32,000 nt of DNA from Bacilli bacterium (GTDB lineage Bacteria; Bacillota_I; Bacilli_A; RF39; UBA660), in the NCBI GenBank assembly GCA_022009835.1, contig CP091726.1:1163678-1195677 (forward strand), written 5' to 3'. The position numbers and the translations under genes were made by a program. Of the stretch, positions 25,860-31,104 are shown one piece after another. The notes under the pieces are model-generated. The model saw only the letters and a program-made list of their open reading frames with translations. It was not told where the DNA came from and made no database searches. Every line of letters begins with the position of its first letter. Within the stretch, counting starts at the first letter, position 1.

Positions 25860-26781
25860 ATGAATATAAATTTTGAATTATATAGAATATTTTATGTAGT
25901 TGCTAATCATAGTAATATTACTAAAGCAAGTGAAGAATTAAATATATCACAGCCTGCTATTAGTAAATCTATTAAGAATCTTGAAGATCAATTAGGAGGA
26001 AACCTCTTTATAAGAACTAAAAGAGGGGTTATATTAACAGAAGAAGGAAAAGAATTCTATAACTATATTAAACAAGCTATGGAATATATTAATAATGCTG
26101 AAAAGAAGTTTACCAATCTTATTAACTTAGAAACAGGATGTATAAAAATTGGAATTAATACTACTTTAACAAAAAGAATTCTTACTACCCTTTCTAGAAG
26201 AATTTCACTCTTTATATCCTAAAATAGATATTCAAATTATAACAGGACTAACTACAGAATTAATATCTAAATTAAAAAAATGGATTAATTGATATAATAA
26301 TATTAAATATTAACAATAAAGATTACGGTAATGATATTGAAATAATTAAATGCCAGAAGATAAATGATTGTTTTTGTAGTAAATAGTAAATTCAAAGAAT
26401 TAATTAATAAAGAAATATCACTAAAAAGATATAAACAATTATCCTTTAATATTGCAAAAGAAAGGTTCTAATACTAGGGATTTTTTTAGATAATATTGCT
26501 AAGGAAAAACGATGTTATTCTAAAAACCTAATATAGAACTAGCAAGTTATTCTCTAGTTGTAGAATTTTCTAAAATAGGACTAGGTATTGGATATGTAAC
26601 TAAGAAATATATACAAAAAAAGAATTAAAGAATAAAGAACTATATGAATTAAATATCAAAGAAAAGATTCCTAGTAGATATATAGGTATCGCTCTATCAA
26701 AAAAATCACTTACCTAGTTTTTAGTACTAAAAAAAACTTATTGAAATAATAGAAAAAAAGACAAATATAATTTTTAAATAA
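25860..26781 (+). CDS. LysR-family transcriptional regulator, frameshifted
   Basis: The N-terminal wHTH 'ITKASEELNISQPAISKSIKNLEDQLGGNLFIRTKRGVILTEEGKEF' sits in an intact 120-aa ORF. The effector-domain segments ('FHSLYPKIDIQIITGLTTELISKLKNGLIDI') are in other frames. The 3' end is approximate. Confidence 0.7.
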
Positions 26782-26802
26782 TTTTTATATCTGTCTTTTT
26801 TT
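26755..26802 (+). terminator. terminator after the LysR gene
   Basis: AAAAAGACAAATATAA ... TTATATCTGTCTTTTT (one mismatch) plus a T-run. Confidence 0.5.
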
Positions 26803-26917: not shown

Positions 26918-27001
26918 TGGTGCGGGTGAAGGGACTTGAACCCCCACGGATAAACCACTAGATCCTAAGTCTAGCGCGTCTGCCAATTTCGCCACACCCG
27001 C
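26918..27001 (-). tRNA. tRNA-Leu (TAG)
   Basis: Reverse complement GCGGGTGTGGCGAAATTGGCAGACGCGCTAGACTTAGGATCTAG... It has anticodon loop CTTAGGA, a long variable arm, a T-arm and CCA. Confidence 0.9.
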
Positions 27002-27008
27002 ACAATTA

Positions 27009-27085
27009 TGGTGGACCCTGCAGGACTCGAACCTGCGACCGCCCGGTTATGAGCCGGATGCTCTAACCAACTGAGCTAAGGGTCC
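27009..27085 (-). tRNA. tRNA with CAT anticodon, probably tRNA-Ile2 (lysidine) rather than Met
   Basis: Reverse complement GGACCCTTAGCTCAGTTGGTTAGAGCATCCGGCTCATAACCGGG...GGGTCCACCA. The cloverleaf folds. The acceptor and body resemble Bacillus/E. coli tRNA-Ile(CAU) as I recall them. Confidence 0.9.
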
Positions 27086-27261: not shown

Positions 27262-27450
27262 ATGAATAATCAAAATATTGAAGATAAAGCATTGACTACT
27301 CTAGCCTTTGTTATAGGGCTTGCTCTTATAGATAATCTATCTAGCACTGAACAAAATGCTGTTGGTAACTGGATAATGTTAATAGCACAAACTCTTTGTA
27401 CTAATGGTAGTTATACATTTAATAAAGAATGGAAAAAGTCATACAAGTAA
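27262..27450 (+). CDS. hypothetical small protein (62 aa)
   Basis: Intact ORF with a hydrophobic core ('LTTLAFVIGLALIDNLSSTEQNAVGNWIMLIAQTL'). No confident family. Confidence 0.3.
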   Translation: MNNQNIEDKALTTLAFVIGLALIDNLSSTEQNAVGNWIMLIAQTLCTNGSYTFNKEWKKSYK

Positions 27451-27621: not shown

Positions 27622-28029
27622 TCATATTTTTTTAAATAAACTTTTAATTTCATTTTGTAAATCAGTTGGAACACTTAGTGGGACACCATCAACAGTATGC
27701 ACATGATCTATATACTTTTCTAATGTAGGAAATGCATTTTGAAGTAATATTGCAGCATCTTTGTCTGCTATTTTCCTAATTATAATTGTATTACAAAAAA
27801 ACCATAACGTTCTACCTTTTTTTATTAATTATTTTTTTGATATTTATCTACTTTTAGAACTTATTGGTATAAACCATAAGATATCTTTGTCTTTAATAGT
27901 AAAATAGGTTGGTCTCTTTTTACCCTTTTCATGATTTTGCATTAAACTATCATCATCTACAACATCAAAATATTCATCTTTAATATGATATAAATAACCT
28001 GTCTTAATTTCCATGGGCATCATCTCCAT
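27622..28029 (-). CDS. type III toxin-antitoxin toxin (ToxN/AbiQ/CptN-like endoribonuclease), frameshifted
   Basis: ORF 27844..28029 ('GYLYHIKDEYFDVVDDD...KKRPTYFTIKDKDILWFIPISSK') fits the ToxN/AbiQ N-terminal pattern (Y..yl...d, RPy, PlsS.K). It continues across A-run breaks as 'KKVERYGFFCNTIIIRKIADKDAAILLQNAFP...'. The upstream RNA-repeat architecture supports the call. Confidence 0.6.
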
Positions 28030-28035
28030 ATATAA

Positions 28036-28076
28036 TATATCACAAAATAAAAAGAAAACTCCATCATTTGATGAAG
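28036..28076 (-). terminator. intrinsic terminator/attenuator between the antitoxin repeats and the toxin ORF
   Basis: On the minus-strand RNA: CUUCAUCA-aa-UGAUGGAG (including one G-U pair) followed by UUUUCUUUUUAUUUU. The toxin RBS (GGAG) follows. Confidence 0.5.
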
Positions 28077-28093
28077 TTATTCTACATTTTCAA

Positions 28094-28193
28094 CCAGGAT
28101 CATTTATTAGTCGCACCACCTGGAAGCGAAAAAAACATTGTCGCCTGGAATCATTTATTATTCGCACCATCCAGAAGCGAAAAACATTTTCAC
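28094..28193 (-). ncRNA. tandem ~50-nt repeats (2 full copies plus a degenerate copy at ~28060..28093): putative type III antitoxin RNA
   Basis: R1 (28094..28143) and R2 (28144..28193) align along their whole length. Each contains an internal hairpin, CCAGG...CCTGG in R1 and CCTGG...CCAG in R2, with a compensatory A:T to T:A swap. The position and orientation relative to the toxin match the toxIN layout. Confidence 0.55.
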
Positions 28194-28214
28194 ACTAATA
28201 AGTGCAATATAAAT

Positions 28215-28242
28215 ATACTACATTTTTTTATGAAAATGTCAA
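28215..28242 (-). promoter_or_regulatory. putative promoter of the repeat-toxin transcript
   Basis: On the minus strand: TTGACA, a 16-nt spacer, then TAGTAT. It lies ~20 nt upstream of the first repeat. Confidence 0.4.
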
Positions 28243-28464: not shown

Positions 28465-31104
28465 TTACATAGTCTCTTTTAATTTAGCTTGAGCAGCAGC
28501 TAATCTAGCAATAGGAACTCTATATGGTGAACAAGATACATAGTTTAGTCCTATATTATGACAGAACTCAACGGATGTTGGTTCTCCACCATGTTCTCCA
28601 CATATACCTAATTTAATATCAGGTCTAGTACTTCTGCCCTTTTCTGCGGCCATCTTAACAAGCTGTCCTACACCTACTTGGTCTAATTTAGCAAATGGAT
28701 CAATTTCATATATCTTATTTTGATAATAAGCATCTAAGAATTTACCAGCATCATCTCTAGAGAAGCCAAATGTCATTTGAGTTAAATCATTAGTACCAAA
28801 TGAGAAGAACTCTGCTTCTTTAGCGATAGCATCTGCGGTTAAGGCTGCTCTTGGTATTTCTATCATAGTACCAATATGATATTTCATATCAGAATTATAT
28901 TCTCTCTTAACTTCTTCAGCTACTTCTACAACGATATCTTTGACAAACTTAAGTTCTTTTTCTTCTCCTACTAAAGGTATCATAATTTCAGGTGTAATAT
29001 CATAACCATCTTCTTCTTTAACCTCAATAGCGGCTTCCATTAAAGCCCTAGTTTGCATTCTAGCAATCTCTGGATAAGTAACAGCAAGTCTACATCCTCT
29101 ATGACCCATCATTGGATTAAATTCATGTAATTCTGCTATCTTATTCTTTAAATGTTCTACAGTAACATTCATATCTTTTGCTAAAGCAATTATATCTTCT
29201 TCTAAAGTAGGTAAAAATTCATGTAGTGGTGGATCTAAGTATCTAACAGTCATTGGAAGATTCTTTAACTCTTTATACATAGCTTTAAAATCACCTTTTT
29301 GGAATGGGATTAATTCATCTAAAGCTTTTGTTCTATCTTCTACTGTCTCTGATAGAATCATCTTTCTAATCTTAGGTATTCTATCTTCTTCAAAGAACAT
29401 ATGCTCAGTTCTACATAGTCCTATACCTTCTGCTCCTAGTTCAATAGCTTTAGCAGTATCTCTAGGATTATCAGCATTAGTTCTAACACCTAGTGTTCTA
29501 TATTCATCAGCCCACTTCATTATTCTACCAAAATCACCACTAACAGTAGCCTCTTTAGTAGGAATATCTCCTGCATATATTTTACCAGTGTTACCATCAA
29601 GTGAAATATAATCCCCCTTATGGAATGTCTTACCTCCTAAAGTAAATTCTTCCTTTTCTTCATTAATATTAATAGCACCACAACCTGCTACACAGCATGT
29701 ACCCATACCTCTAGCAACAACGGCAGCATGAGAAGTTCTTCCACCTCTTACAGTTAAAATACCTTGAGAGGCAACCATACCTTCAATATCTTCAGGGGTA
29801 GTCTCTAGTCTTACAAGTACTACTCTCTTTCCTTTACCACCTTTACCTAATGCTTTTGCTTCTTCAGCAGTAAATACTACCATGCCAGCAGCGGCACCAG
29901 GACTAGCAGGTAATCCTTCACCAATAGAAGTACTCTTCTTTAATTCTTCAGCATCAAATGTAGGATGAAGTAATTGATCTAGACTCTTAGCATCAATTCT
30001 AAGTACTGCCTCCTCTGGAGTAATCATACCTTCATCTACTAGATCACAAGCAATCTTAATTGCAGCTTGTGCAGTTCTCTTACCATTTCTAGTTTGTAAG
30101 AAATATAACTTACCTTCTTCAATAGTAAACTCCATATCTTGCATATCTCTATAATGATTTTCTAGTTTTTGAGCAAGTTCCATAAACTCTTTATAACATT
30201 CTGGTAAATCTTCTTCTAGTTTAGTAATAGGTTCAGGAGTTCTAACACCTGCGACTACATCTTCTCCTTGAGCATTAATTAAGTATTCTCCATAAATACC
30301 TTTTTTACCAGTTGCAGGATCTCTAGTAAAGGCAACACCAGTACCTGAAGTATTACCCATATTACCAAATACCATTGATTGTACATTAACTGCTGTTCCC
30401 CAATCTCCTGGTATATCATTCATTCTTCTATAAACAATAGCTCTAGGATTATCCCAAGAACGGAATACTGCTTTAACTGCTCCCATTAATTGTTCTTTAG
30501 GATCTTGAGGGAACTCTTCACCATTCATGTGATCACTATATACTTTTTTAAATCTATTTACTAATTCTTTTAAATCTTCTACTGTAAGTTCAGTATCATA
30601 ATGAACACCTTTCTCTTCTTTTAATTCATCTATTATTTTTTCAAAGAAAGATTTATTTACTTCCATTACTACATCTGAATACATTTGAATAAATCTTCTA
30701 TAAGAATCATAAGCAAATCTAGGATTACCAGTCTTTTTAGCAAATCCTTCTACTGCTACATCATTTAATCCTAGATTAAGTATTGTATCCATCATACCTG
30801 GCATACTTGCTCTAGCACCACTTCTTACTGATACAAGTAATGGATTATTTATATCACCAAACTTCTTTCCTTGTAATTTTTTTCTAAATCTTCTAGTGCT
30901 TTTAAAGATTTGAGATTCTATCTCTTCAGATATTTCTTTACCATTATCATAATAATTAGTACAAGCCTCTGTTGAAATAGTAAATCCTTGCGGTATAGGT
31001 AATCCTAAATTAGTCATTTCAGCTAAATTAGCCCCTTTACCACCAAGTAAATTTCTCATATCCTTGTTACCTTCTTTAAAGGCATAAACATATTTTGTCA
31101 TCAT
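28465..31104 (-). CDS. ppdK: pyruvate, phosphate dikinase
   Basis: Intact 879-aa ORF. It has the typical N-terminus 'YVYAFKEG...LLGGKGANLAEM', the phospho-histidine region 'GGRTSHAAVVARGMG' and the PEP-utilizer C-terminus 'GICGEHGG'. Confidence 0.97.
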   Translation of the reverse strand: MMTKYVYAFKEGNKDMRNLLGGKGANLAEMTNLGLPIPQGFTISTEACTNYYDNGKEISEEIESQIFKSTRRFRKKLQGKKFGDINNPLLVSVRSGARASMPGMMDTILNLGLNDVAVEGFAKKTGNPRFAYDSYRRFIQMYSDVVMEVNKSFFEKIIDELKEEKGVHYDTELTVEDLKELVNRFKKVYSDHMNGEEFPQDPKEQLMGAVKAVFRSWDNPRAIVYRRMNDIPGDWGTAVNVQSMVFGNMGNTSGTGVAFTRDPATGKKGIYGEYLINAQGEDVVAGVRTPEPITKLEEDLPECYKEFMELAQKLENHYRDMQDMEFTIEEGKLYFLQTRNGKRTAQAAIKIACDLVDEGMITPEEAVLRIDAKSLDQLLHPTFDAEELKKSTSIGEGLPASPGAAAGMVVFTAEEAKALGKGGKGKRVVLVRLETTPEDIEGMVASQGILTVRGGRTSHAAVVARGMGTCCVAGCGAININEEKEEFTLGGKTFHKGDYISLDGNTGKIYAGDIPTKEATVSGDFGRIMKWADEYRTLGVRTNADNPRDTAKAIELGAEGIGLCRTEHMFFEEDRIPKIRKMILSETVEDRTKALDELIPFQKGDFKAMYKELKNLPMTVRYLDPPLHEFLPTLEEDIIALAKDMNVTVEHLKNKIAELHEFNPMMGHRGCRLAVTYPEIARMQTRALMEAAIEVKEEDGYDITPEIMIPLVGEEKELKFVKDIVVEVAEEVKREYNSDMKYHIGTMIEIPRAALTADAIAKEAEFFSFGTNDLTQMTFGFSRDDAGKFLDAYYQNKIYEIDPFAKLDQVGVGQLVKMAAEKGRSTRPDIKLGICGEHGGEPTSVEFCHNIGLNYVSCSPYRVPIARLAAAQAKLKETM

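Follow-up and report, generated by a model that had tools for sequence, protein, structure and literature searches.

The 32,000-nucleotide (nt) window analyzed here, that is, the whole stretch of contig CP091726.1 to which all coordinates refer, carries on its minus strand a promoter, a 5′ hairpin, two tandem repeats of about 49 nt, an intrinsic terminator, a ribosome-binding site (RBS) and the open reading frame (ORF) of a toxin, in this order. Unless stated otherwise, the features described below are on that strand. The four elements named in the original prediction for this DNA, namely promoter, repeats, terminator and RBS with ORF, were all found, and its guess that the locus resembles cptIN was correct: the elements are arranged as in a type III toxin-antitoxin (TA) system and the toxin matches the CptIN model of NCBIfam. 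The locus adds a new member, found in uncultured gut Bacillota, to the already known CptIN family. It is likely that it represents a chromosomal type III TA locus of this family, in which the toxin gene, interrupted in the sequence at hand, is probably intact in reality.

The toxin gene and its relatives

The toxin gene, cptN, extends from 28014 to about 27534 and would encode a protein of about 155 amino acids (aa); the locus end at 27622 given originally is too early, since by homology the gene reaches about 27534. The ORF from 28014 begins MEIKTGYLYHIKDEYFDVV and runs into five in-frame stops, the protein going on in other frames, with about eight insertions of 1–3 bases along the gene. The frame-corrected toxin, a protein of 153 aa reconstructed by joining these frames, matched the equivalog model NF047359 of NCBIfam ("type III toxin-antitoxin system CptIN family toxin") at 162.6 bits (E = 5.8e-48; cutoff 90) over 148 of the 150 profile positions, and similarity to a type III toxin family is therefore present. 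The label "ToxN/AbiQ-like" holds at the superfamily level only, because the Pfam model ToxN_toxin (PF13958) scored 16.1 bits (E = 0.014), below its cutoff of 25. A Pfam scan of the two ORF fragments alone gave no match, nor did a PADLOC scan, and the Pfam, NCBIfam and PADLOC scans returned no TenpN-named match, the presence of a TenpN model in these libraries being unverified.

A database search returned 2657 homologues of the toxin, the best 120 of which are mostly intact, about 155 aa in length and 83–93% identical to the reconstruction. One intact relative (P0002, 93% identical) aligned with CptN of Eubacterium rectale (Protein Data Bank entry 4RMO, chain A) with an E-value of 1.8e-20 and 35% identity, which is within the range of the validated CptN toxins, these being mutually 35–44% identical (PMC4627078). 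The segment PISSK..DKY of the protein described here is aligned to PLSSR..DKY of E. rectale CptN, and the Ser-Ser pair, the Lys-Tyr pair and the equivalent of Asp81 are conserved; Tyr104 is matched by His and Ser85 by Ala. Directly behind the SSK motif, the toxin gene of the window carries a +1 insertion.

Three metagenomic loci with intact toxins (L002, L003 and L005) match the window nearly base for base from the promoter through the leader and both repeats to the terminator. A scan of species-representative genomes with a 9-sequence alignment yielded no fewer than 532 relatives. Nearly all of the best 80 are metagenome-assembled genomes (MAGs) of uncultured low-GC gut Bacillota, labeled as Bacilli, Tenericutes, Mycoplasma, Erysipelotrichaceae or a few other taxa, Clostridium sp. 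CAG:914 included, and their sources are rabbit, goat, chicken, mouse and human gut. A well-defined CptIN lineage is thereby placed in these bacteria, in a family of which three members have been tested and one structure has been solved. Homologues are present on 14 predicted viral contigs, and viral-contig homologues of 36–46% aa identity are preceded by recognizably related 44–49-nt repeats before a terminator. The distant CptN homologues on predicted viral contigs (IMG/VR; L087–L098) and on the plasmids NZ_CP048628.1, NZ_CP075965.1 and NC_019558.1 span 32–46% identity; the plasmid records contain four distant homologues of less than 40% identity, all annotated as hypothetical protein, and the cultured-phage records contain no homologue.

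The antitoxin RNA and its proposed action

Transcription of the repeats probably starts from a promoter with the −35 box TTGACA (28237..28242), which is kept as TTGAC[AT] in 62 of 67 distinct relatives, the window counted. The likely true −10 box is TATATT (28212..28217), 19 nt from the −35 box in the window and 17 nt from it in relatives; the arrangement TTGAC[AT]-17-TAnAnT is found in 61 of the 67, and the 19-nt spacing in the window alone. This spacing can be explained by two extra A residues in the A-run of the spacer (28229-28223), which is 7 long in the window and 5 long in relatives. A promoter scan of the window itself reports TTGACA-16-TAGTAT, the combination that had been proposed originally; in view of the TATATT at 17 nt in relatives, TAGTAT with its 16-nt spacer is probably the wrong −10 choice and was read as such because of a homopolymer artefact. 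At the predicted transcript start is a leader hairpin, GCACU-UAUU-AGUGU (28192..28205), the arms of which covary among relatives (GCACU/AGUGU, GCUACU/AGUGGU, GUACU/AGUAC and CAGAUGAG/CUCAUC), so that it is kept in structure rather than in sequence. The folding z-score of 53 distinct leaders averages −2.3.

The CptI array consists of repeat 1 (R1; 28140..28188), a 49-nt unit with the sequence AAUGUUUUUCGCUUCUGGAUGGUGCGAAUAAUAAAUGAUUCCAGGCGAC, and repeat 2 (R2; 28089..28139), which is 51 nt long here and 49 nt long in relatives. The length of R2 is distorted by the homopolymer artefact, its T-run (28135-28129) being TTTTTTT in the window versus TTTTT in relatives. A direct-repeat search recovered two 50-nt copies, 80% identical and spaced 51 nt, and a profile search of the whole window detected R1 and R2 only, with no further copy. 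The two full repeats of the original prediction are thus confirmed, and its degenerate third copy reduces to a third junction motif, AAUGU (28084..28088), which is the predicted 3′ processing site of R2 and is directly followed by the terminator. Among 81 related loci in which nhmmer detected units upstream of the toxin, exactly two units are present in 77, with a period of 48–52 nt, mostly 49 or 51, and the other loci contain a single unit, are cut off or are degraded; the repeats are accordingly conserved upstream of homologous ORFs, with covariation as described below. Natural variants include two loci with one repeat (L035 and L042) and one in which repeat 2 is fused to the terminator tail with loss of the terminator stem (L054).

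Each repeat is predicted to fold as an H-type pseudoknot, a structure that is supported by covariation among units of related loci. When 74 distinct units were aligned without structural guidance and two stems were then tested, stem S1 (alignment columns 9–13 with 28–32; UUCGC/GCGAA in R1, UCGC/GCGA in R2) and stem S2 (columns 16–20 with 44–48; CUGGA/UCCAG in R1, CCAGG/CCUGG in R2) showed standard pairs in 96.5% of stem cells and double-sided changes at 8 of the 10 base pairs. Compensatory cells numbered 89, compared with 23.1 ± 3.5 after shuffling, a value reached by none of 500 shuffles, although the relatedness of the sequences and the derivation of the structure from inspecting them inflate such covariation statistics and count against the reading. 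When the 3′ partners were slid by 1–3 columns, pairing fell to 29–50%. The compensatory swap claimed earlier for the two repeats of the window is real and larger than stated, since three of the five pairs of stem 2 differ on both sides between R1 and R2. The order within a unit is S1-5′, S2-5′, S1-3′, A-rich loop (UAAUAAAUGAU) and S2-3′, and the geometry comprises two 5-bp stems, a 2-nt first loop and an 11-nt A-rich loop. Nested folding of the single units is unremarkable (z = −0.9 and −0.2), as expected for a pseudoknot, and was not used as evidence either way. These 74 units constitute a large natural dataset in support of the CptI-type pseudoknot.

The two repeats of a locus differ from each other in a position-specific manner. 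R1 and R2 are identical in none of 70 loci (mean identity 85%, range 65–98%), and the last base is C for R1 in 66 of these loci and A for R2 in all 70. Between loci, identity is 83% for R1 with R1 and 86% for R2 with R2 but 79% for R1 with R2. Because repeats in the same position are more alike between loci than R1 is to R2, the two positions are old and distinct rather than homogenized copies. Non-identical, position-specific repeats with a fixed copy number of two offer a natural test of the amount of sequence that is read by a highly specific toxin.

The units are bounded by a shared junction motif. AAUGU is preceded by GAA (54 loci), GUA (11) or GGA (5) at the leader-to-R1 junction, by GAC (67) or CGA (5) at the R1-to-R2 junction, and by UGAA (46) or CGAA (12) at the R2-to-terminator junction; the near-constant core, (A/C)AAUG, occurs at nearly all junctions of the three kinds, the few exceptions differing by one base. 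Each of the RNAs bound in the complex from E. rectale terminates in G44-A45 and carries a cyclic phosphate at this end (PMC4627078). If the analogy holds, the cut here would be made either behind the GA ahead of the motif or behind one of the A residues in AAUG.

The array is followed by an intrinsic terminator (28047..28078) with a 9-bp stem and a 4-nt loop (28078-28057) and a U-tract, as originally predicted. It folds at −12 kcal/mol (z = −3.9; no shuffle folds equally well), it is the one terminator-like site in the scan, versus 0.3 expected, and its stem shows both-sided compensatory changes among relatives. The Shine-Dalgarno sequence GGAG (28024..28027) lies 9 nt upstream of the ATG at 28014, and the earlier assignment of this RBS and of the downstream ORF stands. 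Between terminator and RBS, 19 nt upstream of the ATG, is an extended −10-like element, TGATATATT (28034..28042), which is a possible toxin-proximal promoter. Of 63 distinct spacers, 53 contain the corresponding pattern TGnTAnnnT, compared with 6.4 expected from shuffles, and in 36 of these 53 it is exactly 19 nt from the ATG. A subgroup of loci (L022, L031, L032, L034, L037, L053, L057 and L062) has instead a full TTGAC-N17-TAnnnT promoter between terminator and toxin gene, 60–120 nt upstream of the toxin start, by which toxin transcription would be uncoupled from the repeat promoter. The conserved element and the full promoter of this subgroup, taken together, make an independent toxin promoter plausible, but TGnTAnnnT could equally belong to the 5′ untranslated region as a conserved part of it. 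If the toxin has its own promoter, two promoters, and not read-through of the terminator, would determine the ratio of RNA to toxin.

From these features, maturation and action of the antitoxin can be outlined as follows. A strong promoter (TTGACA, with TATATT 17 nt on in relatives) would drive a short transcript composed of the 5′ hairpin, the two repeats of about 49 nt and the intrinsic terminator. Each repeat would form an H-type pseudoknot bounded by the (A/C)AAUG motif, and the downstream gene is predicted to encode the CptN endoribonuclease. As in E. rectale CptIN, the toxin would then cleave the repeat RNA at the junctions, and the excised pseudoknots would bind the toxin and keep it inactive. 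Transcripts that pass the terminator would supply the toxin message, to which the extended −10 element 19 nt before the start codon may also contribute.

Besides the inflated covariation statistics, three points speak against this scheme. Two residues that specify bases in E. rectale CptN are changed here (Tyr104 to His and Ser85 to Ala), the 4–7-nt inter-stem loop with an invariant UGG is a feature undescribed for E. rectale CptI, and RNA processing, toxicity and antitoxicity are argued by analogy with E. rectale CptIN.

A different role for the repeats, as a cis-acting leader by which the downstream nuclease gene is controlled, for instance an attenuator or an array of protein-binding operators, and not as an antitoxin, is very improbable. 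Such a leader would be placed as the repeats are, between a promoter and a terminator ahead of a gene, a separate −10-like element adjoins the toxin, and the repeats match no Rfam family: at gathering thresholds three transfer RNAs (tRNAs) alone match in the window, and hits at E up to 10 are noise, that is, microRNA and small nucleolar RNA models at 10–18 bits. However, in the solved complex of the toxin family such repeats are bound as processed pseudoknots (PMC4627078), the covariation backs a pseudoknot within the unit and not alternative terminator/antiterminator pairings, and the number of copies is constant at two, the junction motif standing at nearly all boundaries of the three kinds. 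Resemblance of both repeats and ORF by chance in AT-rich DNA has next to no probability and is already refuted. The array, with its two copies at 80% identity and an indel, was missed by Tandem Repeats Finder (minimum score 30), and the z-scores of single-unit folding quoted above are inconspicuous, but the matches to the toxin model and to 4RMO are far beyond chance, and the architecture recurs in 77 of 81 loci with compensatory changes. A CptIN-type antitoxin RNA remains the preferred reading of the repeats.

Homopolymer runs and the interrupted toxin frame

The original prediction had noted that the toxin ORF is broken at A-runs and had attributed this to assembly error or to inactivation. 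The breakage is present, and a sequence artefact, not inactivation, is its most likely cause: miscalled homopolymer lengths are the likely source of the breaks and the locus itself is probably intact, so that the toxin would most likely be broken only on paper. Relative to related loci, the indels are insertions only (+1, +2 or +3), nearly all of which lengthen an A- or T-run; the exceptional insertion is a GG added behind an A-run. They are located in the promoter spacer, in R2, in the terminator tail and at about eight sites in the toxin gene, that is, in coding and non-coding sequence alike. In comparison with the closest relative, four of six five-base runs became seven-base runs, the sole six-base run also became a seven-base run, and none of the five-base runs gained a single base.

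The same signature is found throughout the window. A/T runs of 3, 4, 5, 6, 7 and 8 bases number 1095, 374, 202, 38, 127 and 12 in the window, and 21892, 9993, 3995, 1714, 740 and 146 in the pooled related loci, where the counts fall smoothly; seven-base runs outnumber six-base runs in none of 85 related loci. In the neighboring ppdK gene, two insertions, +1 near 30903 and +2 near 30883 (minus strand), are separated by 20 nt, the second one converting AAAAA to AAAAAAA. They scramble about seven codons (IFKSTRRFRKKLQ), after which the frame is restored, so that the 879-aa ORF is open but locally wrong. The gene of a LysR-type regulator (25860-26800, plus strand) shows at least four frame changes, some of them at A/T runs of seven, and its N-terminal helix-turn-helix is read in frame 0 and LLPFLEEFHSLYPKIDIQIITG in frame +1. 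Only about 56% of the window is spanned by ORFs of 80 aa or more, and many genes therefore look fragmented.

The alternative is that cptN is genuinely dead, slippage at A/T runs having left a pseudogene and an orphan antitoxin RNA array. The five in-frame stops and about eight indels of the coding region are what a pseudogene would show; cases in which a truncated CptN gene accompanies a full set of repeats have been described (PMC3401426); and one relative (L075) has a remnant of a single, degraded repeat together with a truncated toxin at the same ppdK-linked position. Expansions are also denser in cptIN than in the neighboring, essential-type ppdK, as selection predicts, and this point favors real decay: five-base runs gained +2 in one of five cases in ppdK versus four of six in cptIN, and runs of three or four were expanded in none of 88 cases in ppdK versus 3 of 31 in cptIN. 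The rarer ppdK expansions fit uneven polishing as well as real mutations filtered by selection. On the other hand, the same expansions are seen in R2, in the spacer of the promoter and in the tail of the terminator, as well as in ppdK and the LysR gene, and the window-wide excess of seven- over six-base runs, seen in none of the 85 related loci, is unlike a slippage equilibrium. Most five-base runs gained exactly +2 and none +1, and outside the indels the toxin is about 93% identical to intact relatives, with substitutions not in excess. A genuinely dead cptN is, on balance, unlikely.

With homopolymer miscalling as the preferred explanation, the apparent cptN pseudogene is a warning for annotation of this window: where homopolymer errors are systematic, any call of a broken gene needs read-level confirmation.

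Chromosomal setting and comparison with known systems

The cptIN locus follows ppdK (28465-31104) directly and precedes tRNA-Met and tRNA-Leu (27085-26918). These tRNAs, tRNA-Leu(UAG) and tRNA-Met(CAU) at 26918-27085 (minus strand), are about 450 nt downstream of the toxin gene, and an ORF of 62 aa lies on the opposite strand (27262-27450, plus) between them and cptN. In 23 species-level genomes, ppdK is located at most 4.1 kb upstream of cptN, and in 14 of the 23 it is within about 400 nt; the neighborhood is seen in L008, L011, L018, L021, L024, L039, L040, L044, L047, L048, L060, L067, L075 and others. Over 253 genome pairs, aa identity is 67% for PpdK and 71% for CptN, and identity at four-fold sites is 0.45 for both genes. 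Because cptIN has diverged in step with ppdK, the comparison points to long vertical inheritance at a fixed, ppdK-linked chromosomal site and not to recent transfer. A recent spread of cptIN by horizontal transfer to its place beside ppdK was considered and rejected on account of the equal four-fold-site identities.

It is conceivable, if rather doubtful, that this branch of CptIN has been domesticated and is passed on vertically as a chromosomal module, instead of being a mobile element for addiction or defense, with R1 and R2 acting as a heteromeric pair with two toxins and with a promoter of the toxin's own. The adjacency to ppdK across deeply diverged gut Bacillota, the conservation of the toxin to about the level of PpdK and the distinctness of R1 and R2 may be taken in this sense. 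As for defense, the original statement that several type III systems act in abortive infection is true of ToxIN and AbiQ, but no such activity is established for CptIN: neither of two CptIN loci tested protects E. coli from six coliphages (PMC3401426). Abortive infection by the present locus is therefore a possibility but is not expected.

The TenpIN systems of Photorhabdus luminescens and relatives (PMC12283969) resemble the locus in having few, non-identical repeats of about 50 nt with an A-rich stretch, but the toxin here matches the CptIN model. With ToxIN/AbiQ of Pectobacterium atrosepticum, Bacillus thuringiensis and Lactococcus lactis, the locus would share a repeat RNA processed by the toxin into inhibitory pseudoknots and a terminator that sets the RNA-to-toxin ratio. 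In contrast, ToxI units are about 34–36 nt long, are present in 2.9–5.5 copies and form triplex-containing pseudoknots in 3:3 complexes, and the toxin described here is below the cutoff of the Pfam ToxN_toxin model.

Among the 33 cptIN loci surveyed by Blower et al. (2012; PMC3401426), hosts are of the Bacillota type and location is likewise chromosomal; cptIN was found on chromosomes only, and the CptI sequences could not be aligned. Copy numbers in that survey are 1.9–3.4, compared with about 2.1 here, and the mean toxin length is 149 aa, compared with about 155 aa. The repeats of 48–52 nt (49 nt in the subgroup of the window) are at or just above the descriptive range of 40–48 nt, and the hosts are uncultured gut MAG lineages outside the survey. 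Whereas cptI repeats have been described as nearly identical (PMC12283969), those found here are diverged and position-specific.

The closest comparison is with CptIN of E. rectale (4RMO; Rao et al., 2015; PMC4627078), which is also chromosomal and has the same arrangement of promoter, two tandem repeats, terminator and toxin, with an H-type pseudoknot in which a long A-rich loop connects the 3′ strands of stem 1 and stem 2. In E. coli, toxicity has been shown for the CptIN systems of E. rectale, Ruminococcus torques and Coprococcus catus, each of which only its own repeats neutralize (PMC4627078), and E. rectale CptIN stabilizes plasmids (PMC4627078, PMC5086642). Two repeats per locus are compatible with a 2:2 heterotetrameric protein-RNA complex. 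The E. rectale unit is 45 nt long versus 49–52 nt here, and its loop 1 has 1 nt versus 2 nt; the units here have 5-bp stems and the extra UGG loop of 4–7 nt between them, the repeats are never identical (mean 85%), and a conserved −10-like element adjoins the toxin. Departures from the known CptIN systems are thus modest, consisting of non-identical repeats of 49–52 nt, the extra UGG loop, a possible second promoter and apparent vertical inheritance beside ppdK.

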